Under the pieces are notes generated by a model. It did no database searches and was not told where the DNA came from. It saw only the letters and a list, made by a program, of their open reading frames with translations. This document shows, one piece after another, positions 8,891 through 44,419 of a stretch of 64,000 nucleotides of DNA. This DNA comes from an uncultured Pseudomonadota bacterium. Its GTDB lineage: Bacteria; Myxococcota_A; Bradymonadia; Bradymonadales; GCA-2716585. The stretch is from NCBI GenBank assembly GCA_937123825.1, contig CAKZKQ010000781.1:18434-82433 (forward strand), given 5' to 3'. The translations under genes were made by a program, and so were the position numbers. Each line of letters opens with the position of its first letter. The first letter of the stretch is position 1.

Positions 8891-9628
8891 TCAATCTTCG
8901 GAGAGCAAGAAGCCCGCGACGGCGCCGCCCTCAATCAAGCGCTGAAGCTCATCCAGCACCGGTTTGCGATCAAATTCACCATAAAGCCCCTCCAAAAACG
9001 CCCACCCCGAGGCCAATGGGCTGCCGTCGTGCAGGTGCGCCACCATCTGAGCCAGCATTGGTGTGACCTGGAGGTGCTTGAAGCGCTCATTTGAAGGGTT
9101 TCTCCACGCCACGATGAAGGCCGGGACCGCCAAAGGGGCTGGCCAACCGTCGCTGCGGCGGTCAAGGGTGTGCACCGGGTGCTGGTAGATGGCCAATCGG
9201 GCGCTTGGATCGAGGATCATCGCCGCGCGATCATCAATGTCGCGCCCCAAGACCGGCGATGCAGGCAGGTCTGGGGCGTTGATGACGTCTATTTCGAGCA
9301 CTTCCCAGTGGATCAACTCGGCAAAGGCCGGGTGAGGGACCGAAAGATCGGGGGCTGAGCCCAACCAAGCGGCAAATTCGCCCGCGATCTGCCAGTAAAG
9401 CCTCGACTGGGGCGGAGATTGCTCCAACCACACCCCCAAAATCCGATTGAGGTGCTCGGCAGACGTCAAATGGGTCGCCACAGGGATGGCGCGCCGCACT
9501 GCGCCCAGGATGCTCTTGCGCACCTGGCGCCTGTAGAGGCGCTGCGCACGCTCGTCCATCCCCTCAAAGAGGCGGACATCCTGGTCGAGCAGCATCTTGC
9601 GGACAGATTCCTCAAGGGCGGCGTTCAT
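8891..9628 (-). CDS. DUF2063-family partner protein of an MNIO enzyme (HvfC/BufC-like)
   Basis: 245 aa. The N-terminal pattern (RLYRRQVRKSILGAVRRAIPV...LGVWLEQSPPQSRLYWQIAGEFAAWL) matches the DUF2063 layout. The start overlaps the stop of the upstream DUF692 gene by 4 nt (9625-9628). Confidence 0.7.
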   Translation of the reverse strand: MNAALEESVRKMLLDQDVRLFEGMDERAQRLYRRQVRKSILGAVRRAIPVATHLTSAEHLNRILGVWLEQSPPQSRLYWQIAGEFAAWLGSAPDLSVPHPAFAELIHWEVLEIDVINAPDLPASPVLGRDIDDRAAMILDPSARLAIYQHPVHTLDRRSDGWPAPLAVPAFIVAWRNPSNERFKHLQVTPMLAQMVAHLHDGSPLASGWAFLEGLYGEFDRKPVLDELQRLIEGGAVAGFLLSED

Positions 9629-10494
9629 GAGGCGGCCTCCATGATGCTGCGCAGCCTGATCAACTCATCCTCAAGCTCACTCAAGGGCGGAAAGTTGCCG
9701 TCGCGCTCCAAAAGCACCGGCACATCACGGGGCAAGCGCTCCATGGTGTAGGCGAAGAGGTCGTAGACAGGATCGGCGATGGGCATCGCGTGCGTGTCCA
9801 ACAGAATGTCGGGGGCTTCCTGGAAGTGACCGGCCACGTGGATCTGAATCACGCGCTCCAGCGGCAACGCGTCGATGTAGTCCCTGGGCTCGAAGCCAAA
9901 GTTGAAGGCGTTGACGTAGACATTGTTGACGTCAAGCAAGAGCCCACAGTCCGCCTCTTCCAAGACGGCGGTGACAAACTCGGGCTCGGTCATCTCGCCG
10001 CCGGGCATGTCACCGTAAGCCGAGACATTCTCCACCGCCATGGGCAACTCCAGGAAGTCCTGAACCTGACGCACGCGCTGCGCAGTGCGCCGCACGGCCT
10101 CGCCGTTGAAAGGCAGCGGGAGCAACTCGTGGATCTCTGCGCCCGCGATGTGGGTCATGCACAGATGGTCGCTGTACCAACGCGCGCCGACCTCTTTGAG
10201 CATCGCTTTGACCTGGGTCAAAAGCTCCATCTGCATCGGGGCAAGACCCGCCAGGTCACCACAGAGACCGTGACACACCACCGGCCAGCGCTCTCTGGCG
10301 GCGTGCAGGAGCCGAGCGCGCCGACCCCCCACACCCACATAGTTTTCAGGGCAAACTTCAATAAAGCGGGCCTGGGACTGCGGCGCGCTGAGCATGGCGT
10401 CGGCCAAACCCAGGCGAAAGCCAAGCCCAACGCCTTCAATGGCGTCGATGGGTTGTGTCATGGTCCTCATCCAAAAGGGACTGGCGCCAACCAT
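9625..10494 (-). CDS. DUF692 / multinuclear non-heme iron oxidase (MNIO), HvfB/MbnB-like
   Basis: Family-typical blocks are VGLGFRLGL, FIEVCPENY, WPVVCHGL, WYSDHLC, LLPLPF, MAVENVSAY, GLLLDVNNVYVNAFNFGF and IHVAGH. The start is ambiguous (ATGs at 10494, 10470, 10461). Confidence 0.85.
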   Translation of the reverse strand: MVGASPFWMRTMTQPIDAIEGVGLGFRLGLADAMLSAPQSQARFIEVCPENYVGVGGRRARLLHAARERWPVVCHGLCGDLAGLAPMQMELLTQVKAMLKEVGARWYSDHLCMTHIAGAEIHELLPLPFNGEAVRRTAQRVRQVQDFLELPMAVENVSAYGDMPGGEMTEPEFVTAVLEEADCGLLLDVNNVYVNAFNFGFEPRDYIDALPLERVIQIHVAGHFQEAPDILLDTHAMPIADPVYDLFAYTMERLPRDVPVLLERDGNFPPLSELEDELIRLRSIMEAAS

Positions 10495-10590
10495 CCAAAG
10501 CGCTCAGGAGGGTCTGCGCCACACAGAAACGGCCGCCGCTCGGGTTGTGAGGGGCGACCGTTGATCAATCGGTGTTGTGGGGATGTGGTG

Positions 10591-10614
10591 GAGGCTCACC
10601 TCAAAGCGAGCCTC
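10591..10614 (-). promoter_or_regulatory. Hairpin in the 170-nt gap between the precursor gene and the MNIO gene (possible attenuator or partial terminator)
   Basis: gaggctc (10591-10597) and gagcctc (10608-10614) are perfect complements with a 10-nt loop. No strong U-tract. Confidence 0.25.
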
Positions 10615-10663
10615 TAAGGCGCGTGGAAGCTCACAAGCCCCCAACGGCGAGCCTCAAAGCGGC

Positions 10664-11008
10664 TCACCCGCCGCACTTGCCCTCACCGCATTTGCCTTCA
10701 CCGTCTTTCTCGGCACCGTCGGCGCCCTCTTCGGCTTTGTCACCACCGCACTTGCCTTCACCACACTTGCCCTCACCGCACTTGCCTTCGCCGTCTTTCT
10801 CGGCGCCATCGGCTGGCGCAGCGTCAGCGGGGGCGGAGGCGGGGGCTTTATCAGCAGGGGCGCTGGCCGGGGCGCTGGAGGGCGCGTCGGCGGGTTTGGC
10901 ATCAGCGGGCTTGGGGTCAGGCGTGGACGCGCATCCGGTGACGACCAGGGGAGTGGCCAGCAGAGCGATCGAAGAACCAAGGCTGATGAGGAATTTGTTG
11001 TGTTTCAT
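10664..11008 (-). CDS. RiPP precursor lipoprotein with five (E)GKCG repeats (HvfA-like)
   Basis: 114 aa. Signal plus lipobox (LATPLVVTGC). Pro/Ala-rich linker (PDPKPADAKPADAPSSAPASAPADKAPASAPADAAPA). Two repeat blocks, GEGKCGEGKCGEGKCGG and the C-terminal GEGKCGEGKCGG. It lies directly upstream of the DUF692 + DUF2063 genes. Confidence 0.8.
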   Translation of the reverse strand: MKHNKFLISLGSSIALLATPLVVTGCASTPDPKPADAKPADAPSSAPASAPADKAPASAPADAAPADGAEKDGEGKCGEGKCGEGKCGGDKAEEGADGAEKDGEGKCGEGKCGG

Positions 11009-11285
11009 GTTTGTCGGTCCCTATGAGATTTGAGGTACATGGCCCCAATTCAAACACCTGAAGCAAGCTCGGCCTGGCATAGTCGGAGTTGGTTCGGGTG
11101 ATGTGGGGCACTGCCAAGGAGCACATTACCACAAAAATGTTGTAATGCGATCCAAACGCGGTCGTCCGCTCAACAAAAACGGACGCTGTGCTGCGATCTG
11201 AGCCCCTCCACCACGGGATCATCTCTTCCCGTGGTGGGGGTTCTCACCACATGGTACGCACCAAACCAAAGAGCGTTTCATAAAA

Positions 11286-11358
11286 AGTCGCCGGAGGGAC
11301 TCGAACCCCCTTCCTCCTGCTTGAAAGGCAGGCGCTCGACCTGTTGAGCTTCAGCGAC
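11286..11358 (-). tRNA. tRNA-Glu(UUC), atypical body (A8; generic D-arm)
   Basis: The reverse complement folds as GUCGCUG-AA-GCUC-AACAGGUC-GAGC-G-CCUGC-CUUUCAA-GCAGG-AGGAA-GGGGG-UUCGAGU-CCCUC-CGGCGAC-U. It has U2:A71. No CCA is encoded. Confidence 0.7.
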
Positions 11359-11432
11359 CTGTTGCGCGCAGACATGCTATGCAAGACCGCATCGCACACT
11401 GTGCACACAAACCATCATACACCAGAACCCAC

Positions 11433-11505
11433 AGCCGCCGGAGGGGCTCGAACCCCCATAAACAGATTAGCCATCCGCTGCTCTGACCTGTTGAGCTACA
11501 GCGGC
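11433..11505 (-). tRNA. tRNA-like gene, isotype undetermined (class-I body, anticodon position reads GCU, G at position 33)
   Basis: Folds as GCCGCUG-UA-GCUC-AACAGGUCA-GAGC-A-GCGGA-UGGCUAA-UCUGU-UUAU-GGGGG-UUCGAGC-CCCUC-CGGCGGC-U. The anticodon stem has two G-U pairs. The variable region is 4 nt, so it is not a bacterial tRNA-Ser body. Confidence 0.5.
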
Positions 11506-11547
11506 GCAATGTGGAAGGGCTTTGGCGACGCTGCGCCAAAACATCCA

Positions 11548-11621
11548 AGCCGCCGGAAGGAATCGAACCCCCAACCTATGGTTCCGAAGACCATCGCTCT
11601 GTCCTGTTGAGCTACAGCGGC
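11548..11621 (-). tRNA. tRNA-Arg(UCG)
   Basis: Folds as GCCGCUG-UA-GCUC-AACAGGACA-GAGC-G-AUGGU-CUUCGGA-ACCAU-AGGUU-GGGGG-UUCGAUU-CCUUC-CGGCGGC-U. A20 and C35 are present. Confidence 0.8.
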
Positions 11622-11684
11622 GCAGTATGTGTTGTATGCGCGCGAATCAGACGGCGCAGCGTTTGTCCCCACACACAGTGACAA

Positions 11685-11757
11685 AGCCGCCGGAGGGATT
11701 CGAACCCCCATAAGACGGTTTTGCAGACCGCCTGCCTTTCCTATCAGCCACAGCGGC
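11685..11757 (-). tRNA. tRNA-Cys(GCA)
   Basis: Acceptor GCCGCUG/CGGCGGC with discriminator U73. Anticodon arm GCGGU-CUGCAAA-ACCGU. T-arm GGGGG-UUCGAAU-CCCUC. The D-stem is irregular (about 3 bp). Confidence 0.75.
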
Positions 11758-11861
11758 GGGGCCCCTAAGCCATAAGCATTGGACAACGGCATTATATGGT
11801 CACGCTCTGGCCCTTCCACAAGACCTTCGCAGTGGCTTTGCCCCCCACCGGGAGCATTTCA

Positions 11862-12623
11862 TCAGAGGACAAAGGGGAAGATGGCGCGTCGCTGCGCCGG
11901 ATAGTCCTCAAAAGTCTCCCGATACCACCGGTGGTGGCTCAGAGCGCGGGGGACAAGGTTGGCGGCGGTGTAGATTGCGAAGGCCAATCCCCCAAGAGAC
12001 CACGACGCAAGGGCCCAACCGCACCATTCGAGCACTTCTCCAAGGTAGTTGGGGGCCGTCACCCACCGGTAAACGCCCCCTCGGGGGATCCTGTAGCCCG
12101 TTTCACCTGGCGCGCGGAGGTTGAAGAGGACATTGTCGGCGTGAACGTTGACGCCAAAGCCCACAAAGAAGACCAACGCCCCCAGAATAAAGCGTGGATC
12201 GTAGAGCCAATCGCTTTGATAGACTCCAAAGTGGCTTATCCAGCGCGCATTGACGTAGGCGTTGAGGACGTTGAAGCACACAGCCAGCGCTGCGACCAGG
12301 ACGGGCATGGTTTTGCCCTCCGATCGCATGCGAAAAGGGAATATGAAGGTCCTGTGAATGTAGTGCCACTGCCACATGCACAGCAAAACAAGCGGCGCGA
12401 GCCCCGCGCTGTGGTCTCCCATGGCAAAAATGGCAGCAAAGACCACCACTGCGGGGCTTTCCATGAGGATCCAGCCCAGACGAGCAGGAATGACAGGGCC
12501 CCAGCGACCCGGTTTGTGGTGTCTGCCATAGGGCGCCGTGATGAAAATCAGCGCGATGAAGGTCAGCGCGGCCAGAATGACCTCCAGCGCCACCATCGAT
12601 GTGTAGAAATGGCTCTCTGTCAC
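11862..12623 (-). CDS. 3-oxo-5-alpha-steroid 4-dehydrogenase (steroid 5-alpha-reductase) family membrane protein
   Basis: 253 aa, polytopic. The C-terminal family signature is RIPRGGVYRWVTAPNYLGEVLEWCGWALA ... HHRWY. Confidence 0.75.
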   Translation of the reverse strand: MTESHFYTSMVALEVILAALTFIALIFITAPYGRHHKPGRWGPVIPARLGWILMESPAVVVFAAIFAMGDHSAGLAPLVLLCMWQWHYIHRTFIFPFRMRSEGKTMPVLVAALAVCFNVLNAYVNARWISHFGVYQSDWLYDPRFILGALVFFVGFGVNVHADNVLFNLRAPGETGYRIPRGGVYRWVTAPNYLGEVLEWCGWALASWSLGGLAFAIYTAANLVPRALSHHRWYRETFEDYPAQRRAIFPFVL

Positions 12624-13315: not shown

Positions 13316-13390
13316 CGCCGCTGGGGGGATTCGAACCCCCACCCTCGGAAATTATGAGTCTCCGCGCTCTGCCTTTGGAGCTACAGCGAC
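13316..13390 (-). tRNA. tRNA-Met(CAU) (elongator Met or Ile2; not initiator-like)
   Basis: Folds as GUCGCUG-UA-GCUC-CAAAGGCA-GAGC-..-GGAGA-CUCAUAA-UUUCC-..-GGGGG-UUCGAAU-CCCCC-CAGCGGC-G. It shares the scaffold of the 11.3-11.8 kb array. Confidence 0.75.
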
Positions 13391-13474: not shown

Positions 13475-16400
13475 TCAACGCGGGCGGATGTAGCGGGCAA
13501 AGGGTTGATTGTGGAGGTAGACCTCGTCTCCAAAGCGGCGCATGGCCTGCTGTGCTTGTGCGTCCATGGTTGGGCGCCGCAGGACCTGGAGGTTGTGTTG
13601 GAGCTGCGCCAACGTCTCGGGCGCAGAGAGGCAGGCAGAGACCCCCGGCTGACTGAGCACATACCGGTAGGCGTCGGCGGCCGAGGGAGGCGCGGGGGCC
13701 TGGGGGTGCGGGCGCTGGAGCATGCGGCCGTAGCAAAGGTTGGAGAAGGACACCAATCCCGCCCCGTGGCGGAGCACGGCGGGCAAGACCTGACGCTCCA
13801 CGCCACGGTGGGCGGCGTTGTGCCGGATCATGATCAGGCGCCAACCTTGCTCCAGCGCCTCCAATGCCAAAGAGCGCTGGTGGGTGGAGATGCCGTAGGT
13901 GCCAATGAGCCCTTCGGCCTTGAGGTCCTCCAGGTCCTGCATCAACGGCGCGCGCAAACGGCCACTTGAGCGCACCCAGAAGATCAAGAAGACCGGCAAG
14001 ACATCGAGCCTCAACCGCTCAAGCACATGCTCAATGTCCCGGCGCAGCTCATCGGCCGTGGTCCCCATCGAGCCCGACATCACCACCAGATCACTGCGGC
14101 GCTGCGGCTCAATATGCCTGAAGAAGCGGGTCATGCCGTTGTAGGGCGGCTCCCAGAAGAAGAAGTTGCACCCGGCCTCCGCGGCCTGCGCAAAACCCTC
14201 GGCGGACAACCCGTAGTGCCCCGTCACCCCCATGGGCGTGACCCAGGGCCCCTGGGGACACAGTTGACGCATGCCCGCAGGCGCTTCAGAAGGCCAAAGC
14301 ACCGCTCGATCACGCGAAACAAGCGACGACACCGAGATCGCCTTGGATGACGGCACCAAATCGCCCAGCGGCCGCCGAACCCACCGGGCCACCGCACGCA
14401 ACACTCGCCAGGAGGTCTCCAAATCCGGCTGCGCCCAGACCTCACGGGCCCGATCCAGGGTCAGTGCGGCCTCTCGCACCCTGTGGTCGTGATCTTCCTG
14501 CAACAAAAACAGCTCGGGGCATGAGTGGGCGTTGGCGTTGAACCAGTCGGCGGCCAATTTGCGCACCTTCCAAGCCCCATCTCGGGCCATGTCCTGCCAA
14601 AATGCCATCGTTTGGACCCCATGGGGCGCCGACGCCAAGGATCTGCACAACGCCAAACGCAGTTCGACATGCCCACAGGCCTTTTTTGACACCCATGAGA
14701 GGTCAACAAGGAGCGCATTGAGAGAAAGAGACCCGAGACAGCGCGCCAATCCCTGCGCCGAGAGCCCTTTGCGCGCCTTTTGCCACTCGGCGACCTCCTC
14801 ATCCCCCTCTAAATCGTGGAGAACAAGCCCCATCGCCCTCGATCTAATGTCCTCCACGGGGTGTTCGAGGAGCGCCCGCGCCAACAAGCGCGTCTCGTCA
14901 TCGACTTCAACGCCCAAAAGGTGGTCCAAGGCCCACAACAATGCCCCTTTGGAGGGCCGGACAGCGAGGACCTCGCGCGCCAGCGCAGCGCGGCGCGACG
15001 CCGTCAGCATGGACAAGAGCTTCAGCACCCTCCCAGGGCGCCTCCTGGTGTCACCAAACACCTCCAAAACCGCCGCCAGCATCGACGTCGAACCCCATTT
15101 CACCAAATGGTTCGTCGCCGCCCTTGCCACGCGGTCATCCGAGTGGTCCAGGAGCCCCACACAAAGCCCCACATCGCGCCTCGCGTCGTCCTTACACAAG
15201 GCGCCAAGGTTCAAATGCAGCACCGCCGGGTCATCGTCCCACCACGGCGCACCATAAGCGGGCAGTGATGGGGACTGCGGCGCTGGAAACCGGGTCAAAA
15301 AGCCTTCGCGCTGGGCCGCTGGGGTCAAATGAAAGCGGACATAGCGCGCTGTGGCTCTATAAAGGGGCGTGCTCTGCTGCGATTCGTCGAGTCTGGCCAC
15401 CACATCGGCGACATTGTCAGGCTCAGACCTCACCCACTCGATCACAAACGTCGCCGCCGCATGGCGAACTCGCCAGAGCGGATCATCAAAGGCCTCAAAA
15501 AGGAGCCATCGCCACGATTCAGGTCCCCTGAACCAGGCCTCGACGATGGTTCTGCGCACCAACCAGGCCGATTCGAGACAAAAAAGGCGCCGAAGGAGAT
15601 CTCCCAGGCCCTCGTGAGGCACACGGACAAGCGATCGAATGGACTCCTGACGCACAGAGAGGGCCGGATGGTGGCCCGCAGCGTCGATCAACGCGTTGCT
15701 CGCCACCTTGGCCTCACTGCCTGCCAACAAAGACGCCGCCTCCAAAGCCCCGCTCAACGATCGCTCGGGCTCAAGGAGGTCACACAAGCCCTCCACAACC
15801 CCCTGCGGCAAGGTTTCCAGGGCTTTGAGCCGCTCGATCGTCGCCAAGACCGTCTCTTTGCGGACCAAACCATGGGCGAGCACCCGCGCTTGGGCGCCGT
15901 TTGGGTTGAGGGGAACACTTTCCACCGGCGCACTGGCGGTTCCCTGACTGTCCAACACCGCACCGGGGCCCAACAAGCGCTCCGAGGCCGCCAGGACATC
16001 AGGGTGTTCTTCGAGCTTGAGCGCCAAACGGATGGATGCTTTGGGGACGAGCGCCCCCAGACGCCCCAAGGACCACAGCGCGCTGCGGCGAACCTCCCAG
16101 TGCGGATCCTGCGCCACCGAGCGCAAGAGCGCCTCAGGGGACGACTTCAAACGGCCCAGCGTCACCACCGCCGACTGGCGCACCTTCCACTGCCCGTCCC
16201 CAGCCGCCAACGCCACCAACGCCCCCACGCTCTCGATGGCCTGTGGACCACACTGGCCCAAACCACGGGCCGCCGCCGCGCGGGCATCTGGATGCGCGGC
16301 CTCCCGGGCATTTTCCAGACGCACCACCGAGCGCAGTTGACCCAGCGCCCAGGCGGCGGCCTTGCGCTGGCTCCAACGCTGGCTGTGACGCAACCACCAC

Positions 16401-16651
16401 CCAAGCGACGGACCCAAGACACCGTCCCCCAAAGACTGCACGCGACGCAGCGCCCCCTCGCGCCCCGGCCCCACCACCGCCTGGGTCAACCACTGCGGGG
16501 TCTGCGCCGGGATGTGACGCGCCATCAAAGCCTGGGCGCGGCGCTGCAACTGAGGTTCTGCACCAAAAAGGATTTCAAAGAGGAGTCGCCCCAGGGTCTC
16601 TTGCGGCAACGCCTCGGCGCGCTCCCACTGGTCCAGGTCGGCAGGTGTCAT
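13475..16651 (-). CDS. HEAT-repeat protein fused to a C-terminal aldo/keto-reductase-like domain
   Basis: There are many HEAT/PBS-lyase-type units (DGQWKVRQSAVVTLGRL, DPHWEVRRSALWSLGRLG, DPLWRVRHAAATFV, DDRVARAATNHL, DGAWKVRKLAADW, DHDHRVREAALTL). The last ~300 aa are AKR-like (GCNFFFWEPPYNG ... LKAEGLIGTYGISTH ... IMIRHNAAH ... GAGLVSFSNLCYGRML). I chose the ATG at 16651, 4 nt after the upstream stop. A TTG at 16705 is an alternative. Confidence 0.6.
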   Translation of the reverse strand: MTPADLDQWERAEALPQETLGRLLFEILFGAEPQLQRRAQALMARHIPAQTPQWLTQAVVGPGREGALRRVQSLGDGVLGPSLGWWLRHSQRWSQRKAAAWALGQLRSVVRLENAREAAHPDARAAAARGLGQCGPQAIESVGALVALAAGDGQWKVRQSAVVTLGRLKSSPEALLRSVAQDPHWEVRRSALWSLGRLGALVPKASIRLALKLEEHPDVLAASERLLGPGAVLDSQGTASAPVESVPLNPNGAQARVLAHGLVRKETVLATIERLKALETLPQGVVEGLCDLLEPERSLSGALEAASLLAGSEAKVASNALIDAAGHHPALSVRQESIRSLVRVPHEGLGDLLRRLFCLESAWLVRRTIVEAWFRGPESWRWLLFEAFDDPLWRVRHAAATFVIEWVRSEPDNVADVVARLDESQQSTPLYRATARYVRFHLTPAAQREGFLTRFPAPQSPSLPAYGAPWWDDDPAVLHLNLGALCKDDARRDVGLCVGLLDHSDDRVARAATNHLVKWGSTSMLAAVLEVFGDTRRRPGRVLKLLSMLTASRRAALAREVLAVRPSKGALLWALDHLLGVEVDDETRLLARALLEHPVEDIRSRAMGLVLHDLEGDEEVAEWQKARKGLSAQGLARCLGSLSLNALLVDLSWVSKKACGHVELRLALCRSLASAPHGVQTMAFWQDMARDGAWKVRKLAADWFNANAHSCPELFLLQEDHDHRVREAALTLDRAREVWAQPDLETSWRVLRAVARWVRRPLGDLVPSSKAISVSSLVSRDRAVLWPSEAPAGMRQLCPQGPWVTPMGVTGHYGLSAEGFAQAAEAGCNFFFWEPPYNGMTRFFRHIEPQRRSDLVVMSGSMGTTADELRRDIEHVLERLRLDVLPVFLIFWVRSSGRLRAPLMQDLEDLKAEGLIGTYGISTHQRSLALEALEQGWRLIMIRHNAAHRGVERQVLPAVLRHGAGLVSFSNLCYGRMLQRPHPQAPAPPSAADAYRYVLSQPGVSACLSAPETLAQLQHNLQVLRRPTMDAQAQQAMRRFGDEVYLHNQPFARYIRPR

Positions 16652-16655
16652 GGCA

Positions 16656-17825
16656 TCAAGCTCCAAAAGTCGGCAGCGCGTCCTGGTGACCCCTTTGGCG
16701 CTCAAGTTCGCCCAGGACCTCCCAAACCGCGCGGAGCAGCTCGGCCGGGGCCTGCGGCGCCGAGGACTGGAGCCGGGGTGGATGCGGCGAAGGGAGTTGT
16801 GGGGTCTTCAGTTCGCATTGAAAGCGGATTCGGGTGGTTTTGGCCAGGAGGGTGACCTGGAGGGTGCAGTTGTGCTTGTCGATGGGCCACCACCCCAGTT
16901 GAACCACGCTGACCAGACGCAAATCGATGCTTTGGGGCGGTTGGTCGTCCAGAGTGAGGCTCAACACGGTGTTTTGGAGCGTCGCAGCGCCGTCGGCCCG
17001 GCTTAAGGTGCGCTTCAGGCCCCTTTTGTCGTGGTGGTGCAGCGACCAACGGCGCTCTTTGGGGTGGTTGGTCTCAAACGGCAGTGGGGGATCGCTGGGG
17101 TGCAGCCGGTGGTTTCCGTCGGCGGCCAGCAGCGATTGGCCGTGGGTGTTGAGTTGTTTGGCGTCGGGGTTCCAGCGGCGCTCCAGATCAAAAGGGCTCA
17201 GCGTGTGCCCTGTGATGGCGGTGACCATGGCGGGGATGTAGTCCACATGAAGGTCTGTCAGCGCGCGCCGAATCTTTCGGTTGGAGCGCAGACCAGCAAG
17301 GATCGCCAGCAAGGCGGCGCCGTGAACCAAACCGATGCATTCAAAGCCAGGGAAGAGGATTCCAGCCTCCATCCACACAAACCCAGCCAGCCCCGCCGCG
17401 ATCAGGAGCGGTATGAGACCGAGGGTGAGCCCTATTGAGCGGCGGCGGCACCTCTTGAGCTCAAGCATCACATCGGGACGCAAAAGCGCCACAAGTTCAT
17501 CGGTCAGCGGCTCGGGGTTGGGGGGAGGTGTCTTTTGAGCGATGTCCATGGCCACTTCGGACACGTGCACCAGCGCCTTTGTCATAACCGCGTCGGGCAC
17601 AGCGCGGGTCAGCTTGTAGTGGCGATCGAGCTTTTGCCTTCGGATGAGATCCAACGACACCCGCTTGAACGCGTCGTGGTGGAGATCGAAGCGAAAAAAT
17701 GTGTTCACCGCCCATGGCATCACCAGGACGATCGGCAGCGGGATGAGCGCCAGATAAGCGAACCAGATGATGTCCAATCCGGGTAACAAGACATTCCTCC
17801 TAAAGGTTGACAGCCTTTGGGACAT
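16656..17825 (-). CDS. Membrane protein (about 4 TM segments) with a soluble C-terminal domain, function unknown
   Basis: TM segments include LLPGLDIIWFAYLALIPLPIVLVMPW, IGLTLGLIPLLIAAGLAGFVW and LVHGAALLAILAGL. It is tightly coupled to the downstream HEAT-AKR gene. The start is uncertain (ATG 17825 or TTG 17852). Confidence 0.5.
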   Translation of the reverse strand: MSQRLSTFRRNVLLPGLDIIWFAYLALIPLPIVLVMPWAVNTFFRFDLHHDAFKRVSLDLIRRQKLDRHYKLTRAVPDAVMTKALVHVSEVAMDIAQKTPPPNPEPLTDELVALLRPDVMLELKRCRRRSIGLTLGLIPLLIAAGLAGFVWMEAGILFPGFECIGLVHGAALLAILAGLRSNRKIRRALTDLHVDYIPAMVTAITGHTLSPFDLERRWNPDAKQLNTHGQSLLAADGNHRLHPSDPPLPFETNHPKERRWSLHHHDKRGLKRTLSRADGAATLQNTVLSLTLDDQPPQSIDLRLVSVVQLGWWPIDKHNCTLQVTLLAKTTRIRFQCELKTPQLPSPHPPRLQSSAPQAPAELLRAVWEVLGELERQRGHQDALPTFGA

Positions 17826-17938
17826 GATTAAATCGCCGGCCACCCAAATCAAGACACACAGGACCTACCCACAAGGGGTCAGGCTATGGGGTGCTCTGCG
17901 CCTGCTGATGGGCAGAGGTGCATCTGGAGGGTCGAACG

Positions 17939-19051
17939 ATGGTCGCAAAAGCCGCAAAGATCAAAATCAAAAATGGTGAAGCGTTTGACGTGGTCTTCTA
18001 CGCCAACCCTCGCAAAGAGAGCGCGTACCGGTTTCGGGCCACGCACATCGGCGAGCATCGGGCGCCGAAGGTGATCCTCTGTGACGATGGGCGGATTCAG
18101 CCTGGGAAGCTGACCAAGGTGCGGGTGGTGTCGGTGAAGAAGCCCGCCAGCCGCGATCGGGGCTTCATTGAGGTGGAGTACTTGAGCCAGGTGCGTTTTG
18201 CGCTCGACGACGGGATCTATGTGGACCGGATGTTGGCGCTCAAGCTCCAGGCGTTGCTGGAGAGCGGGTTGAACATCCTGCTCGATGGCCCACAGGGCTG
18301 CGGCAAGACGGTCTTGTCGCGCAAGATCGCCAAGGCTCTGGGGTTGGAGTACGTCTTCTTCAACTGCAGCGCGGTTTACGAGCCCACGGACTTTCTGGCC
18401 AGCCTCCAGGTCAAAGCCAACGACGCGGGGCAGGCCGAGACGGTGTGGATCCCGACAGACATCTTGCGTGCCTTGGAGGCAGCGCACGCCGAGCCCAACC
18501 GCCGGTTCCTGATCTTCCTCGACGAGTTCAACCGCTGCCGTGAGATGGCCCGCAACGGCATCATGCCGGCGCTGGATTCGACCCGCAAGATGTTCAACCC
18601 GCTGACGGGAAGCTCGATGATGATCCCGGACAACGTGTTGTGGATCGCGGCGATCAACAACGGGGCGCAGTTTACGGGCACCACGAGCGTGGACCCGGCC
18701 CAGTTGGATCGTTTTGCGCCGTTGAAGATCGGCTACATGCCCGATCAAGAGGAAACCCGGCTTCTGGTCCGCCGCAACCCCAGCGTGCCCCGGGCTCAGA
18801 TCGTCAAAGTCGTCCAAGCGGCCAACGCCGTACGGAGCGATGACGAGTTGGGCGTCGATTTGAGCATGCGGGCGACCGAAGAGGTCTGCACGTTGCTGGG
18901 TCACCCCAACTTTATGAGCAAAGAAGGTCAGGATCCGGTCCCCGAGCTGCTCAAGTCGAGCTTTTGCGGCCGCTTTCAGGGCACCTGGGACGATCCGACC
19001 TCGGATGCGGGCCTGGTCTGGCAGACCATTGTCCGCGCATTGGGGCTCTAG
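17939..19051 (+). CDS. AAA_5 / MoxR-like AAA+ ATPase with an extra ~115-aa N-terminal domain
   Basis: GGAGG at 17926-17930 precedes the ATG at 17939. Walker A is LLDGPQGCGKT (GKT at 18302-18310). Walker B is FLIFLDEFNR. Further blocks are WIAAINNG and QLDRF. Confidence 0.85.
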   Translation: MVAKAAKIKIKNGEAFDVVFYANPRKESAYRFRATHIGEHRAPKVILCDDGRIQPGKLTKVRVVSVKKPASRDRGFIEVEYLSQVRFALDDGIYVDRMLALKLQALLESGLNILLDGPQGCGKTVLSRKIAKALGLEYVFFNCSAVYEPTDFLASLQVKANDAGQAETVWIPTDILRALEAAHAEPNRRFLIFLDEFNRCREMARNGIMPALDSTRKMFNPLTGSSMMIPDNVLWIAAINNGAQFTGTTSVDPAQLDRFAPLKIGYMPDQEETRLLVRRNPSVPRAQIVKVVQAANAVRSDDELGVDLSMRATEEVCTLLGHPNFMSKEGQDPVPELLKSSFCGRFQGTWDDPTSDAGLVWQTIVRALGL

Positions 19052-19135
19052 GCCCTGTCTGACCGCTGTCAGACACGGCTTTAAGAGCACGTTTGCGCCT
19101 TGCGCGCAGACCAAAAGGCCTGGAGGGCCTGTGTC

Positions 19136-22100
19136 ATGGCTGGTTTTGAGCACATTGTTGATCTGAACGCACTCCAAACGCTGGCGTTGGCGCACAGCGC
19201 GGACCCAGAGACGCTCATTTTGGTGCTTGAGCGCGTCTCCAAGGTGGGCACGCTCGCCGCACAGCCCATCTTGCAGCACTGGTTTGAGCACACTCAGGAC
19301 CCACGGGTCTTTAGAGCGGCGCTGAATGGGCTGGCGAGCGTGTGCGATGACCGCGCCGAGGCGCTGGTGGATGGTGCGGTGGGGGAAAAACGCTTTCTGA
19401 GGGAGGTGTTGGACCACGTGTGCGCCGATCTAGCCCGTGGTGGCAAGGGCATCTCGCGTCTGGTGGTCAAATTCACAGAGGACAACCCGCAGTTGCGCCG
19501 CTTGTGCGTCGATGCAGTCCTCAAAGAGGGTGTCAAAACGGGTTGGGAGCGGTTGGAGCCAGCGATTGAAGATATCGGCTGGGAGCATGACGCGCTGCTG
19601 CTGGCCGACATTGGCGCGTGGGTCAGAGATTTGCCCGAAGGCGAAGCCAAATCACGACAGTTGGAGGCCCTCTGGGAGGTCTTGGGCAAACGCTTTACAG
19701 AGTTGGACGACGACGACGGCATCGGAACGCTGGAGACGCTGTGGGAATGCGACTGGCCGCTGCGCATGATCGCGGTGGAGGACATGCTGAAGTCCGAAGA
19801 GTACGACGCGAGGGTGTGCGCGGTGCAACTTTTGGCCACCACTGGTGATGAGAAGCACCTCAAAGCGCTGCTGGAGGCGGCCAAGCTCGATTCTGATGAC
19901 GATGTGCGGTGCGCCGCCCTGCATGCGCTCTTTAAAGTGAACCACGAGATCGCGCTGAAGACGGCGCGGCGCGCGCTCAGGCGCGACAAGAACGCCAAGG
20001 TCCGCGCCGAGGCGTGCAAAATGCTCAAAGATCACGGCGACGCGGCGCAAGATCGGGAGCGTTTGCTCAAACTGTTGCGACACGATCAAGAAGAAGCGCC
20101 TGCGTTGGCTGCGTTTGAAACGCTGAAGCACCTGGTGCCCAACGAAATGTTGGAGGTGGCGCTCGATTTGCTCGGCGATCAGCGCAGTTTTGTGGCCAAG
20201 GAGGCGCTGGCGCACTGCGATCAAGCCGACAGCGTGGACGAGACGTGCGAGGCGTTGACCAAAGCCCTTAAAACGGCCACACCTGAGTTGGTGGATGCAG
20301 CCATAGCGTGGTCAAACCAACGTGCCCCCAAGAAAACCAAGGCGCTGGTGAGCTCTGCCATGGAAAATCCGGACGCCAAGGCGCAGTTGAAACTGAGTCA
20401 GGCGCTGGAGTCCATTGGAGACAGGCGCTTTATGGGTCTGCTCAAGCAACAGGCTCAGTCGGGCAACGGCCAGATCCGCGTTGCTGCGCTGCAGGCCATG
20501 CGCAAGGTGGCACCGGAACACAACCGGTCACTGACGGAGCCCTTTTTGGGGGACTGTAACGCCGCTGTGCGCGCCAAAGCGGTGGCTGGGCTGGTGGATG
20601 ACGAGAGCCGCTGGGCGTTGGAGGCTGCCCTCAAGGCAGCGCGAGACGAGAGTATGGACGTCCGCATCGAGGCGCTGCGTGCGATGCGCAAGTTTGATGA
20701 TCCGCGCGTCTTTGCCGAGTTGGTCTCTTCGCTCAACGATGTGACATCCAATGTCCGCGACATCGCAACGGGCATCCTCACGGGCGCACAGGGGCCAGTG
20801 CCGTCGCTGGATCGGGTTCAGATGCAGTGGGGCCGTGGTTCGCAGCCCGTTTGGGAGGTGGTGCGCCGAAGGGTGGAAGCCATCAACCGTTGGGCGGTCT
20901 TTATGGGGCAGGAGCTGCTTGGCAAACCTGTGGTTGTGCACCAGTACCGCCAGGGTTTGGGCCGAACCCACGCCGCCAACCCCTCCACTGGAACGGTGGA
21001 GATCGAGGTGTCGGACACGCCGGTCACCAGCGGCCATCCGCACGGCGAGGAGGTCATGAAGGGGCTGGTGCTGCACGAGTTGGGGCACCACCTGTGTGAC
21101 ATCGGGGTGCGTGGGCACCACACGATGCGCAGCATCGCCCGCTCAGCGAAGATCAAGGATATCTACGACATCCTGATCGACGAGCGCCTTGAGCGGACGC
21201 TTCGCTCTCGGCGCCCGGCCTGGGGGCTCTACTTCGACCGGCTGGCGTCGTACGCCTTTGCTCAGGATGAGCATCGGATGGGTTTGGAGCAGTTGGCACA
21301 GCTCATTGGCCGCGACGATGTGCGCCAGGTGCGCGACGAGATCATCCAAGGGGTACTGCCTGGGCGGCTGGTGTCACCTGAAGACGGGTCGTTGGGCGAA
21401 GATGCACAGGTGGCGCTGCGCGACAGCGATCTTCTGGGGCTGCCAGGGGTGGTGCCGCTGACGATGGGCTTTTTGTGGTGTCTGCGCTGTGGGTTTGACC
21501 CCAGGCTGCACCATGATCCCAGGGTGGCCGAGGCGGTGTCGCTGGTGCCCACCGGTCTGCGCCACATCAACCACGCCGGGGTGCTGAAGGTGGCCCGGGA
21601 GGTGGCGCGGGTCTTGGAGCACGAGGACGGTGAGGCGCAGGAGCAAATGCAGCGCATGACCCGCCTTGGTCAGTGCGGATCGCTGGGGAGTGTGCTTGGT
21701 CGTCTTTCGGATGCCAACATGCTGCCAGAGAGCCACATCCAGGACGGCGCTAACATCCGCCAGACGCCAGAACCCAAGGTGAAGATCGTCACCGAGACCA
21801 AACCGCCGGACAAACGGCGAGGTCGCGGGGGTCAGACGCTTAACCTGGGCGATGACATCGACTTTCCGCGTCTGAAGGAGCGCCGCCAGCCCAAAGGCGA
21901 TGCAGGGGCGGAGTCGCATCTGGTCGCAGGGGTGCGCAAGCATGTGCGGCGCTTGAGGGGTTATATGGAGCGGCTGGGCCGCGGCGAGGTGGAAGAGTAC
22001 GCTTCGCGTCGCGGTCGTCGTTTGGATATGGCCCAGGCGCGCAAGGTGGCTTGGAGCGGTCGGCCCAACCTCCTGGTGCACAACCGCCAGGAGATCGACG

Positions 22101-22609
22101 CCGATGCGTACATCGGGCTCTTGATCGACGCGTCGGGCTCGATGAGTGGTCGGCGCTTGCAGTTGGCGCAGTCGTTTGGGGCGTTGGTGACGGAGAGCGC
22201 GCGCGGTTTGCGTGGCCTTGAGGGCCGCGTGGATGGCTTTGACGACCAATTCTACTACGAGTTGGGTGATTTTCAGCGCCACAACATCAGCGCGTTGGAG
22301 TCAGGAGGCGGCAACAATGACTCGGGGGCGCTCCTGGTGGCGGCACAGCACGCGCTGGCCAGCCGCAAGCGCAACCGCTTGCTGGTGATGATCAGCGATG
22401 GTTCTCCGAGCGCTTGCACGGTGGAGTCGCTGCGTCGGTTGGTGGGGCGCTTGACGCGTCAGCATGGGATCATCTGCGCTCAGGCAGCGGTGGCGTCCAT
22501 CGATCATCAGGCCTTTGCCCACAGCATCGACCTGACGGACGTGGGGACGGACGTGGCGGTGGCCCGCTTTGGGGCCATGCTGATGCGCTTGACGCGCCGC
22601 TGGCGGTAG
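19136..22609 (+). CDS. Giant HEAT-repeat + HExxH metallopeptidase-like + vWA (MIDAS) protein, presumed partner of the AAA_5 ATPase
   Basis: GGAGGG at 19122-19127 precedes the ATG at 19136. About 560 aa of HEAT units (DPRVFRAALNGL, DDDVRCAALHAL, NAKVRAEACKML, NGQIRVAALQAM, NAAVRAKAVAGL, SMDVRIEALRAM, TSNVRDIATGIL). HELGH at 21074-21088. The vWA domain has DASGS at 22127-22141 and LLVMISDGSP. Confidence 0.8.
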   Translation: MAGFEHIVDLNALQTLALAHSADPETLILVLERVSKVGTLAAQPILQHWFEHTQDPRVFRAALNGLASVCDDRAEALVDGAVGEKRFLREVLDHVCADLARGGKGISRLVVKFTEDNPQLRRLCVDAVLKEGVKTGWERLEPAIEDIGWEHDALLLADIGAWVRDLPEGEAKSRQLEALWEVLGKRFTELDDDDGIGTLETLWECDWPLRMIAVEDMLKSEEYDARVCAVQLLATTGDEKHLKALLEAAKLDSDDDVRCAALHALFKVNHEIALKTARRALRRDKNAKVRAEACKMLKDHGDAAQDRERLLKLLRHDQEEAPALAAFETLKHLVPNEMLEVALDLLGDQRSFVAKEALAHCDQADSVDETCEALTKALKTATPELVDAAIAWSNQRAPKKTKALVSSAMENPDAKAQLKLSQALESIGDRRFMGLLKQQAQSGNGQIRVAALQAMRKVAPEHNRSLTEPFLGDCNAAVRAKAVAGLVDDESRWALEAALKAARDESMDVRIEALRAMRKFDDPRVFAELVSSLNDVTSNVRDIATGILTGAQGPVPSLDRVQMQWGRGSQPVWEVVRRRVEAINRWAVFMGQELLGKPVVVHQYRQGLGRTHAANPSTGTVEIEVSDTPVTSGHPHGEEVMKGLVLHELGHHLCDIGVRGHHTMRSIARSAKIKDIYDILIDERLERTLRSRRPAWGLYFDRLASYAFAQDEHRMGLEQLAQLIGRDDVRQVRDEIIQGVLPGRLVSPEDGSLGEDAQVALRDSDLLGLPGVVPLTMGFLWCLRCGFDPRLHHDPRVAEAVSLVPTGLRHINHAGVLKVAREVARVLEHEDGEAQEQMQRMTRLGQCGSLGSVLGRLSDANMLPESHIQDGANIRQTPEPKVKIVTETKPPDKRRGRGGQTLNLGDDIDFPRLKERRQPKGDAGAESHLVAGVRKHVRRLRGYMERLGRGEVEEYASRRGRRLDMAQARKVAWSGRPNLLVHNRQEIDADAYIGLLIDASGSMSGRRLQLAQSFGALVTESARGLRGLEGRVDGFDDQFYYELGDFQRHNISALESGGGNNDSGALLVAAQHALASRKRNRLLVMISDGSPSACTVESLRRLVGRLTRQHGIICAQAAVASIDHQAFAHSIDLTDVGTDVAVARFGAMLMRLTRRWR

Positions 22610-40587: not shown

Positions 40588-42219
<1,632 letters not shown>

Positions 42220-42712: not shown

Positions 42713-44419
<1,707 letters not shown>

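Follow-up and report, generated by a model that had tools for sequence, protein, structure and literature searches.

Five minus-strand tRNA genes with different anticodons share a single scaffold in the window, i.e. the whole stretch of 64,000 nt analysed here. Four of them form an array within 472 nt and the fifth, with a CAU anticodon, lies 1.6 kb away. The scaffold also occurs at a syntenic site in a related lineage, the array is transcribed, purifying selection acts on four of the genes and neighbouring copies have recombined. As a whole, the family is probably a set of chromosomal, expressed paralogues that originated from duplications with a switch of anticodon arm, are kept alike by recombination and would be served by class I synthetases.

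The genes were called with ARAGORN and the Rfam model RF00005 (curated gathering score: 29 bits), a scoring that had been suggested in the initial annotation. ARAGORN concurs with RF00005 on all five, each being a full-length match (model positions 1-71) of 48.3-64.3 bits and thus above the gathering score, which confirms the four tandem tRNAs (Glu-UUC, a GCU species, Arg-UCG and Cys-GCA) and the CAU species read earlier from the letters. Their scores are lower than those of the five tRNAs of the window's tuf region (59-74 bits). G18-G19 and a T loop of the TTCRA type are present in 5/5 members, and CCA is encoded in none of them, vs. most array tRNAs among the loci compared. As for the core, the Glu member has A8 in place of U8, the GCU member G33 in place of U33, and the Cys and CAU members one added nucleotide beside position 26, which can lengthen the anticodon stem to 6 bp (in the Cys member through a G:C pair). 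These unusual core features and the lower Rfam scores count against the reading given above.

Table 1. Location of the scaffold tRNA genes and associated features in the window
Feature	Coordinates	Strand	Remarks
tRNA-Glu(UUC)	11286..11358	-	Last array gene; RF00005 62.5 bits
GCU-anticodon tRNA	11433..11505	-	73 nt, 4-nt variable loop, G33, U73; RF00005 52.7 bits
tRNA-Arg(UCG)	11548..11621	-	A20, C35, G36, U73; RF00005 64.3 bits
tRNA-Cys(GCA)	11685..11757	-	First array gene; U73, C3:G70, G34-C35-A36; RF00005 49.0 bits
CAU-anticodon scaffold tRNA	13316..13390	-	G73, possible 6-bp anticodon stem; RF00005 48.3 bits
Glu-GCU spacer	11359..11432	-	Fast-evolving
Cys-Arg spacer	11622..11684	-	Fast-evolving; polymorphic also inside the window's own population
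115-nt tract absent from sister strain	11448..11562	.	From Arg-gene T loop to GCU-gene T loop, in register
TATAAT hexamer	11791..11796	-	34 nt upstream of Cys gene; possible -10 box of an array promoter, weak

The 5' acceptor strand of the family is GYCGCUG and the 3' strand CGGCGRC (CAGCGGC in the CAU species), whereas the T arm reads GGGGG-UUCGAnn-CCYUC, with CCCCC as 3' T stem in the CAU species. The near-identity of acceptor stem and T arm described initially was thus found throughout. The discriminator U, noted initially for the four array members, is present in 4/4 of them; the CAU species has G at this position. Three members share the D arm GCUC-AACAGG, as first described, namely Glu, GCU and Arg. 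All stems pair in every member; the anticodon stems are variable but compensated, with 3-5 kinds of pair at each position, unlike the acceptor and T stems, which are nearly invariant. When 32 scaffold positions were compared (5' acceptor strand, T arm, 3' acceptor strand and discriminator), family members were identical at 26-30 of them, vs. a mean of 15.0/32 (sd 4.4) for a background of 7712 same-locus tRNA pairs with different anticodons, only 39 of which reach 27/32, the top scorers being mostly isoacceptors. Also, a 25-nt 3' pattern with at most three mismatches occurs five times in the window, 0.01 occurrences being expected by chance. The acceptor stems of the tuf-region tRNAs are unrelated to the scaffold, as had been noted, and these tRNAs have no shared body. 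Not all tRNAs of the lineage therefore have the scaffold, contrary to one of the possibilities raised in the initial annotation.

Concerning isotype identity, the members were compared with the bacterial identity sets of PMC9976931 (Table 1), in which the Arg set includes U73 and C3:G70, and where U73 alone gives Cys identity to minihelices. The Cys member agrees with the tRNA-Cys set through U73, GCA and C3:G70, position 2:71 being C:G vs. G2:C71 in E. coli, where tertiary elements also belong to the set. The Arg member agrees with the tRNA-Arg set (A20, C35, G/U36 and a discriminator A/G or U) through the A20 of its D loop AACAGGACA, the anticodon UCG and U73, and A20 is confined to this member, its sister genes having U at the same place. 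The Glu member combines a UUC anticodon with G1:C72, U2:A71, an ordinary 4-bp D stem (GCUC/GAGC, i.e. C11:G24 and C13:G22) and a 5-nt variable loop. The isotype marks said to be retained (A20 and C35 in Arg, U2:A71 in Glu, U73 with GCA in Cys) were found, those of Table 1 matching, and the lack of an augmented D arm in the Glu species is borne out; in bacterial tRNA-Glu, the augmented D helix of the E. coli type consists of U11:A24 and U13:G22-A46, with no residue 47. For the CAU member, paired G1:C72 and the anticodon stem GGAGA/UUUCC, compared with the 1x72 mismatch of initiators and their three consecutive G:C pairs at the base of the anticodon stem, point to an elongator Met or Ile2 (lysidine) type and not to an initiator.

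All five isotypes named on the scaffold (Glu, Arg, Cys, Met and, in the relative described below, Trp) belong to class I (chance probability of 0.016, calculated post hoc). U73 is atypical in bacterial Glu, Met and above all Trp tRNAs. T stems are normally tuned to the amino acid for EF-Tu binding, and a single T stem common to Glu, Trp and Cys tRNAs runs counter to this. Both points count against the main reading. In its favour, Cys-GCA and Arg-UCG genes are mostly single-copy in bacteria.

The GCU gene is missing from a closely related and very abundant sister strain. Position 11447 is joined there to 11563, as seen in X4 (at a contig depth of 696) and in X6, which corresponds to an in-register deletion with 11 nt common to both sides at the joint. 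The first 59 nt (5') of the Arg gene of this strain are unchanged and its last 15 nt (3') are of the GCU type, with three GCU-type bases in the T loop and 3' T stem, directly followed by the Glu-GCU spacer. The absence of the GCU gene reflects in-register recombination over 115 nt between neighbouring copies; the same polymorphism could also mean that the sister-strain state is ancestral and that the window carries a duplication. Taken together, the Glu, Arg, Cys and CAU genes differ from the sister strain by one pair-preserving change in 280 nt, vs. 37 changes in 517 nt of flanking DNA (Fisher p = 1.8e-6), and these four members are under strong purifying selection. No substitution was found in the Cys and Glu genes, and C5 of the CAU gene is replaced by U5, with pairing to G68 kept; the 40 nt immediately downstream of the CAU gene have 12 changes, and the 74 nt of the Glu-GCU spacer approximately 10 substitutions.

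RNA contigs from three metatranscriptomes cover positions 10670-11661, spacers and Glu gene included, and the array is transcribed. These contigs do not contain the flanking hvfB, and the reductase gene is seen only as a short piece (11926-12112, X9). As for the CAU gene, no RNA contig was found over 13316-13390 in runs X5, X9 and X10. Pairing stems, compensating changes, purifying selection on four members and RNA contigs all support the earlier proposal of a functional family formed by duplication with differing anticodon arms. A promoter and terminator scan called no promoter; the TATAAT upstream of the Cys gene was seen by eye, and its position 11792 varies between strains.

Scaffold matches were found in one further lineage, the MAG SYOX01 (SYOX01000122.1), where tRNAs with Cys, GCU, Trp and CAU anticodons are located at the syntenic chromosomal site, downstream of the HEAT/aldo-keto-reductase orthologue and in an ordinary chromosomal context. 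The two genomes are distant, a flanking protein having 48% amino-acid identity over the alignment and approximately 57% in its best-conserved segment. In SYOX01, three alloacceptors are identical at 32/32 scaffold positions, whereas orthologues between the two genomes share merely 27-29/32. Likewise, positions 2:71 and 6:67 differ between the genomes and are largely uniform within each, the exceptions being the window's Glu member and the two CAU members. Since likeness within a genome exceeds that between orthologues, the pattern is one of concerted evolution. In the SYOX01 CAU member, C1 and C72 are mismatched and position 37 is G, further unusual features that count against the main reading. 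The anticodon arm of the Trp member is the same as that of canonical tRNA-Trp; the Trp gene beside secE is canonical in the window and its nearest relatives.

Scanning of the GTDB representatives with the scaffold pattern gave no locus with four matches. Among the matches listed in the metagenome pattern scan, only L101 and L138 belong to the family, both from the SYOX lineage, the others being unrelated tRNAs (Leu, Thr, Tyr, Arg and Lys) with a GC-rich 3' end in common. Synteny searches with the reductase and HEAT/aldo-keto-reductase genes gave no relative closer than SYOX01. Two MAGs that are nearest by NusG (73-76% identity) have tuf regions with canonical tRNAs, and a genome scan gave no strict scaffold pattern match in them, although they may be incomplete or diverged. 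The lack of a match in these two MAGs counts against the main reading.

Under the duplication reading, an ancestral tRNA gene that had U73 and C3:G70, and was probably of the Cys or Arg type, would have been duplicated in tandem, and its copies, if descent ran in this direction, would have taken on different anticodon arms, i.e. undergone alloacceptor shifts. For Glu, Arg, Cys, Met and Trp, this route is open since the class I synthetases concerned draw most of the identity from the anticodon, complemented by A20 for Arg and U73 for Cys, and the enzyme that charges each member would presumably be the corresponding one. Unequal crossing-over and gene conversion between neighbouring copies would keep the body outside the anticodon arm alike, so that acceptor stem, T arm and discriminator evolve jointly in each genome. 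The Glu, Arg, Cys and CAU members would then be ordinary translational tRNAs, and their genes most likely the principal or sole ones with these anticodons, canonical duplicates being presumably absent, and the GCU member may arise from the same recombination as a dispensable chimera.

Alternatively, the family could be an accessory set beside canonical Glu, Arg, Cys and Met tRNAs, serving as supply tRNAs, as anticodon-nuclease spares or as substrates of a tRNA-dependent non-ribosomal enzyme, as the initial annotation had it. The unusual core features and lower Rfam scores would fit such a set, and a uniform acceptor stem, T arm and discriminator would be in keeping with one shared partner. Moreover, the scaffold Trp of SYOX01 could be a second copy, given the canonical secE-adjacent Trp gene in the window and nearest relatives, and the GCU member must be extra, since the sister strain has no GCU gene even though AGC is the commonest Ser codon. 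We nevertheless regard an accessory set as unlikely: no tRNA-dependent enzyme, nuclease, defence or phage gene was found nearby, the site is syntenic across a deep divergence and under strong constraint, and no further scaffold copy at ≥80% likeness was found outside the locus in the abundant sister strain, which is weak evidence. In a search for a canonical tRNA-Ser(GCU) by contig depth, conserved tRNA words from many organisms collapsed in the metagenome contigs to depths of 10^3-10^5.

The adjacent precursor gene, which the initial annotation had tentatively linked with the accessory set, is of the HvfA type and is followed by genes for an HvfB-type MNIO maturase (PF05114, 302 bits; NF003818) and an HvfC-type partner (NF050145); judging from these sequences, it belongs to a known HvfABC RiPP locus. 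The Hvf pathway is not known to need aminoacyl-tRNA, and neither a LanB-type glutamyl-tRNA-dependent dehydratase nor a PEARL peptide-aminoacyl-tRNA ligase is encoded in the cluster. No hvf genes lie beside the scaffold tRNAs of SYOX01, so the adjacency is not conserved. With a locus of the Hvf type, an adjacency absent from the relative and no mobile context, a tie between the tRNA array and the RiPP precursor was rejected.

The GCU member differs from the tRNA-Ser set of PMC9976931 (long variable arm, G73, C11:G24) by its short variable loop and its U73; among the Ser-anticodon tRNAs of the other loci compared, 50/50 have a long variable arm. The gene resembles the Arg unit at 91% in its 5' half and the Cys unit at 91% in its 3' half. 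Its anticodon stem includes two G·U pairs; the member has no Ser elements and presents U73, C3:G70, G34 and C35 together with U36. Its sequence, G33 included, is unchanged in contigs of X2 and X3 and in RNA run X5, and is fixed in the window's population; the X10 RNA contig differs from the window by one base, and by one gap at 11617, a position inside the Arg gene. The SYOX01 copy has a short variable loop and a regular cloverleaf with U33 and A37, and it adjoins the Cys gene as in the window. Reassignment of AGY codons was ruled out, as AGY falls at Ser/Thr-like positions in conserved proteins. The best reading is that the GCU member would be a dispensable Arg/Cys chimera in which a serine anticodon sits on a body lacking serine identity, a likely by-product of recombination.

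It is rather improbable that this member is instead a working hybrid-identity tRNA, charged with Cys or another non-Ser amino acid and giving low, tuned insertion at AGY codons. Equally doubtful is the more specific version, in which a maintained GCU tRNA would be cysteine-charged via U73, C3:G70, G34 and C35 and would place cysteine at a low level at AGY codons; loss of U33 would damp decoding, by analogy with tRNAProX. The occurrence of a short-armed GCU tRNA beside the Cys gene in both lineages, with a regular SYOX01 copy, would suit such a role, as would the uniformly long arms of the Ser-anticodon tRNAs elsewhere, the fixation of the G33 copy and its presence in RNA contigs, the effect of U73 alone on minihelices (PMC9976931) and the Pro-mistranslating tRNAProX of actinomycetes, which likewise lacks U33 (A33; PMC11415595). 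However, the gene is deleted in the sister strain, G33 and the two G·U pairs look like decay, A36, part of the Cys identity set, is lost, and AGY codons keep to Ser/Thr-like positions. Furthermore, the GCU anticodon arms of the window and SYOX01 are each nearer to their own genome's Cys gene than to each other, so the two genes may be recurrent short-lived duplicates and not one conserved gene. If true, the GCU tRNA would represent a new natural Ser-to-Cys mistranslation system, and the scaffold family would show the birth of hybrid tRNAs via recombination of neighbouring alloacceptor genes.

It is highly improbable that the cluster is what remains of a phage or island tRNA array gained by horizontal transfer: dense tRNA arrays with occasional alloacceptor look-alikes do exist in related metagenomic material (L006, L032), but phage, plasmid and viral collections gave no array-level match, just generic single-tRNA similarity, GC content is uniform, the neighbours are ordinary chromosomal genes without integrase or phage genes among them, a distant relative has its scaffold tRNAs at the syntenic site, and CCA is unencoded, unlike in most array tRNAs compared. 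Just as implausible is a single enzyme charging all members with one amino acid at several codons via the shared acceptor stem and U73, a strong Cys and Gly determinant (PMC9976931): the acceptor stem and discriminator are indeed common to different anticodons, but A20 is restricted to the Arg member, the SYOX01 Trp member has a canonical Trp anticodon arm, the abundant codons GAR, CGR and AUG would be mistranslated, and no dedicated synthetase gene lies nearby.

Among known systems, alloacceptor remolding in metazoan mitochondria and eukaryotic nuclear tRNAs (PMC4783518, PMC3923123) is alike in that a duplicate changes both anticodon and identity, that a tRNA comes to be nearer to a tRNA for another amino acid of its own genome than to its functional counterparts elsewhere, and that isotypes recognised through the anticodon by their synthetases are preferred in such shifts. 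The window array differs in being located on a bacterial chromosome, in uniting four to five isotypes within a single small cluster, in the divergence of whole anticodon arms instead of single bases, and in ongoing recombination that keeps the rest uniform. No bacterial case of such an alloacceptor family was found in the literature searched. In tandem families under concerted evolution, such as rRNA operons and eukaryotic tRNAs (PMC4981973), copies within a genome are also more alike than orthologues, and unequal crossing-over gains and loses units; here, in contrast, homogenisation crosses functions and ends before the anticodon arm, where selection has to maintain the differences.

Bacterial tRNA operons (e.g. 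thrU-tyrU-glyT-thrT-tufB) are likewise transcribed jointly, sometimes with a downstream protein gene, but ordinary ones, including the window's tuf-region cluster, have unrelated tRNA bodies, whereas the scaffold array has a single one. Large tRNA arrays, according to PMC4758250, have ≥20 genes at ≥2 per kb, are mostly Gram-positive and held to be horizontally acquired, and change, as here, by duplication, deletion and rearrangement. With four genes in 472 nt plus one, a chromosomal and syntenic site and a single scaffold, the window cluster lies outside this array definition. Concerning hybrid-identity tRNAs (tRNAProX with ProRSx, selC-type tRNA-Cys and allo-tRNAs; PMC11415595, PMC10404621), the GCU member shares with them a mismatch between body and anticodon, and with tRNAProX (A33; PMC11415595) the lack of U33. 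It differs by having no adjoining synthetase gene, by being dispensable in the sister strain, and by an ordinary 7/5 acceptor/T cloverleaf instead of 8/4 or 9/3 forms; the definition of such tRNAs also includes proven charging with the amino acid of the body. A Cys or Arg body with a Ser anticodon, as in this member, is so far unreported.

Bacterial tRNA identity is commonly seen as frozen, with one ancient body per isotype. At this locus, four to six anticodon classes are found on one body in a bacterial chromosome, and a recombination event between alloacceptor genes segregates in natural populations. The shared body and the segregating event thus provide a concrete route for tRNA identity change or gene replacement in bacteria, which also yields body/anticodon chimeras. 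As a natural test set, the family bears on three questions: to what extent class I synthetases and EF-Tu need the acceptor stem, discriminator and T stem, whether Glu, Arg, Met and Trp tRNAs tolerate U73, and what becomes of a Ser-anticodon tRNA without Ser identity.

As a whole, the tRNAs built on one common body in this window form a real family whose function is most likely ordinary for the greater part. Over the whole window, ARAGORN and the Rfam tRNA model (threshold of 29 bits) agreed on ten tRNAs. Five of them, near 11-13 kb on the minus strand, share the scaffold: the Glu, GCU, Arg and Cys genes, which make up the array, and a CAU gene. With Rfam scores of 48-64 bits, vs. 59-74 bits for the five tRNAs of the tuf region, all five exceed the threshold, and ARAGORN concurs. 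The acceptor stem (GYCGCUG/CGGCGRC) and T arm (GGGGG-UUCGAnn-CCYUC) that the initial annotation had described as common are present in the family sequences, and the D arm GCUC-AACAGG is common to three members. The four array members carry U as discriminator, the CAU member G.

Features of the tRNA array and the adjacent hvf locus (positions in the window)
Feature	Position	Strand	Method
HvfC / HvfB (MNIO) / HvfA-type RiPP metallophore locus	8891-11008	minus	profile models
Leader, 277 nt, tRNA-Glu to hvfA	11009-11285	minus	folding vs. shuffles
tRNA Glu-UUC	11286-11358	minus	ARAGORN + Rfam
GCU tRNA species	11433-11505	minus	ARAGORN + Rfam
tRNA Arg-UCG	11548-11621	minus	ARAGORN + Rfam
tRNA Cys-GCA	11685-11757	minus	ARAGORN + Rfam
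CAU tRNA species	13316-13390	minus	ARAGORN + Rfam

A 25-nt 3' motif (≤3 mismatches) occurs five times in the window vs. 0.01 expected by chance. Family members match at 26-30 of 32 scaffold positions, taken from both acceptor strands, the T arm and the discriminator, vs. a mean of 15.0 (sd 4.4) for 7712 same-locus tRNA pairs with different anticodons from 188 fetched loci. Only 39 of these 7712 pairs reach 27/32, most of the top-scoring ones being isoacceptors, and the tuf-region tRNAs agree with the family at 15-24 positions. The Glu member carries A8, and in Cys and CAU a single additional nucleotide beside position 26 can lengthen the anticodon stem to 6 bp.

The 3' motif was also searched exactly in 185,579 species-representative genomes, which returned seven stretches, with family members in one genome only, MAG SYOX01000122.1 (SYOX). 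Its scaffold tRNAs have Cys-GCA, GCU, Trp-CCA and CAU anticodons, all four with U73; the Cys, GCU and Trp members share all 32 positions, and the GCU species is 72 nt long with U33 and A37. The Cys-GCU pair lies downstream of an orthologue of the window's 1076-aa HEAT/aldo-keto-reductase gene (48% identity over the aligned part, ~57% in the best-conserved segment), and the tRNA site has therefore kept its synteny over a deep divergence; the Trp-CAU pair is found 20.5 kb off on the same contig. Stem pairing is complete in all nine family members, except for a C1xC72 mismatch in the SYOX CAU tRNA (positions 646-717 of locus L005). This tRNA also has G37 beside its anticodon, and neither feature is usual in a tRNA that reads AUG or AUA; the scaffold Trp gene, which has the same anticodon stem, is 8 nt away. 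Among the metagenome matches listed, only two loci, L101 and L138, both of the SYOX lineage, belong to the family, the others being unrelated tRNAs, and the viral contigs, phage genomes and plasmids searched gave generic single-tRNA similarity only. In the window and in SYOX, the surroundings are ordinary chromosomal genes, including those for Ser/Thr kinases, PKD and TSP3 surface proteins, GroEL and the tuf-secE-nusG region; the GC content is uniform, and the best protein matches point to an uncultured marine Myxococcota-like bacterium.

A sister strain, colinear with the window on a 7.5-kb contig (depth 696 in run X4, also present in run X6), lacks 115 nt of the array (11448-11562), 11 nt being common to both sides of the joint. 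Starting at the 5' end, its contig follows Arg as far as the T loop, continues with three bases diagnostic of the T loop and 3' T stem of the GCU gene, and passes directly into the Glu-GCU spacer. This layout indicates that the sister strain possesses Cys, Arg with the 3' end of the GCU gene, and Glu, without a GCU gene. Two alloacceptor genes that lie side by side have here crossed over in register. The window GCU gene is itself a mosaic, with 91% identity to the Arg unit over its 5' leader, acceptor strand and D arm, and 91% identity to the Cys unit over its variable loop, T arm and 3' end; its anticodon stem (GCGGA/UCUGU) is also like that of Cys (GCGGU/ACCGU). Within the family, anticodon stems vary from gene to gene (3-5 pair types per position) vs. 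almost fixed acceptor and T stems. Positions 2:71 and 6:67 differ between genomes, being U:A and C:G, respectively, in SYOX, with mostly C:G at 2:71 and U·G at 6:67 in the window array. Within each genome they are largely uniform, the exceptions being the window Glu gene (U:A at 2:71) and the two CAU members, and orthologous pairs between the window and SYOX agree at 27-29/32 positions, below most neighbour pairs. The crossover, the mosaic gene and the within-genome uniformity fit concerted evolution via unequal crossing-over and gene conversion. The anticodon-arm swapping initially proposed was in effect right, its mechanism being visible.

Mitochondria and the nuclear genomes of eukaryotes offer well-documented cases of alloacceptor remolding and anticodon shifts (PMC4783518, PMC3923123), bacterial tandem tRNA arrays change via duplication and deletion (PMC4758250), and hybrid-identity tRNAs occur in a few bacterial groups (PMC11415595). 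Our literature search found no bacterial example of several alloacceptor tRNAs that have a common body and lie at a conserved site in the chromosome; natural crossovers between such genes and GCU tRNAs with a short arm were likewise absent from its results.

Between the window and the sister strain, 280 nt of tRNA (all of Glu, Cys and CAU, and the 5' 59 nt of Arg) differ at a single base, a C5-to-U5 change in CAU that leaves pairing with G68 intact, vs. ~37 differences in 517 nt of flanking non-coding sequence (Fisher's exact p = 1.8e-6). Constraint on the Glu, Arg, Cys and CAU genes is therefore strong. RNA contigs from three metatranscriptomes span 10670-11661, a single one of 397 nt holding Glu, the GCU member, Arg and their spacers. 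The reductase gene has only a short RNA contig (11926-12112, run X9), and none covers the hvfB or CAU genes in the runs tested; DNA runs, unlike the RNA contigs, show even coverage throughout.

The scaffold anticodons are those of Glu, Arg, Cys and Met/Ile2, with Trp in addition in SYOX, and all five isotypes are read by class I synthetases that draw much identity from the anticodon (chance 0.016, for a pattern noticed post hoc). The bacterial identity sets comprise U73, C3:G70 and GCA for Cys, A20 and C35-G/U36 with either A/G73 or U73 plus C3:G70 for Arg, and CAU with C3:G70 as a minor element for Met (PMC9976931, Table 1). C3:G70 and U73 are found throughout the scaffold, the window CAU member having G73 instead; A at position 20 is restricted to the Arg member, its sister genes having U. 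The Glu member combines G1:C72 and U2:A71 with a D helix that is not of the augmented E. coli type. Judging from these elements, the Glu, Arg, Cys and CAU members would most likely be ordinary translational tRNAs charged by their cognate enzymes. Since Cys-GCA and Arg-UCG genes are usually single-copy in bacteria, the scaffold copies are probably the main genes for those tRNAs; that the family represents an accessory tRNA set, as initially suggested, seems unlikely.

By the genetic code, the GCU member would be a serine tRNA, yet its variable loop has 4 nt and its discriminator is U73. Bacterial SerRS requires a long variable arm and G73 (PMC9976931), and long arms were present in all 50 Ser-anticodon tRNAs of the other fetched loci. 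The sister strain has no scaffold GCU gene and must still read AGY; a canonical tRNA-Ser(GCU) must therefore be encoded elsewhere, which makes the scaffold GCU gene supernumerary. Of the five main Cys determinants, this gene retains four (U73, C3:G70, G34 and C35) and, as U73 alone turns minihelices into Cys acceptors (PMC9976931), weak charging with Cys is conceivable. Although the anticodon stem of the window copy holds two G·U pairs and its position 33 is G instead of the nearly universal U, this copy is fixed in its own population and is found in RNA contigs; the Pro-mistranslating tRNAProX family (PMC11415595) likewise has no U33. We hold a maintained mistranslating function to be improbable, and the GCU member is more likely a dispensable by-product of recombination. 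As for a reassignment of AGY codons, it is ruled out: AGC is the commonest Ser codon in the window (20.4 per thousand codons), and AGY codons of the ribosomal-protein, nusG and tuf genes align in 80 homologous loci with Ser (44%), Thr (23%) and essentially never Cys, so that the code is standard.

In the neighbouring hvf locus, the precursor, with its GEGKCG repeats, is a lipoprotein of 114 aa. It passes the cut-off of the NF050137 model for the HvfA-family repeat domain and stays below that of the full-length HvfA equivalog NF050188 (17.8 bits, cut-off 95). It is followed by an HvfB-type MNIO maturase (PF05114, 302 bits; NF003818) and an HvfC-type partner (NF050145). By these profile matches, the locus is predicted to be the known oxazolone/thioamide RiPP metallophore system, for which no use of aminoacyl-tRNA is known. 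It holds no tRNA-dependent enzyme gene, and no hvf genes lie near the SYOX scaffold tRNAs. An X9 RNA contig (10829-11373) runs from the spacer upstream of tRNA-Glu through this tRNA and the leader into hvfA, which suggests co-transcription of the tRNA operon and the precursor gene by read-through; such read-through may therefore add to hvfA transcription, much as in tRNA-tufB operons. Beyond this possible read-through, there was no sign of a functional tie between array and precursor. RNA contigs are deeper over the hvfA precursor than anywhere else nearby. The leader folds at -106.8 kcal/mol (z = -4.2 vs. shuffles) into three long hairpins and has no Rfam match; 136 nt of it (11150-11285) differ from the sister strain by 3 substitutions, vs. 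~10 in the 74-nt Glu-GCU spacer. This stretch may act as a regulatory leader, or else in processing or termination.

Other tRNA clusters were also encountered. In a Myxococcota MAG (JASJCN010000248.1, locus L006, 79-1534), 14 tRNA genes with encoded CCA occupy 1.5 kb, with oddities such as a Cys of 84 nt, a Trp of 70 nt and the presence of two Cys genes; the array is unrelated to the scaffold family, save for a similar Arg-UCG gene with U73. A 104-kb viral contig (IMGVR_UViG_3300047476_000577, L032) carries 39 tRNA genes in 11 kb, and its scaffold-motif match (10198-10222) falls in a stretch without an ARAGORN tRNA call. Within the window, two HEAT-repeat proteins of >1000 aa (13475-16705, minus; 19100-22609, plus) flank a dynein-related/MoxR-like AAA_5 ATPase (17918-19051, plus); one of them is fused to an aldo/keto-reductase domain, with an orthologue, among GTDB representatives, in SYOX01 only. 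A 430-aa protein (58510-59802, minus) has an N-terminal NYN (predicted RNase) domain and no further recognised domain, and two adjacent GroEL (Cpn60) paralogues (40588-42216 and 42713-44389, minus) enclose a small plus-strand ORF. Finally, the sister-strain contig over 11150-11900 reaches a depth of ~700 in X4, a marine metagenome, and this sample could yield a complete genome of the lineage.
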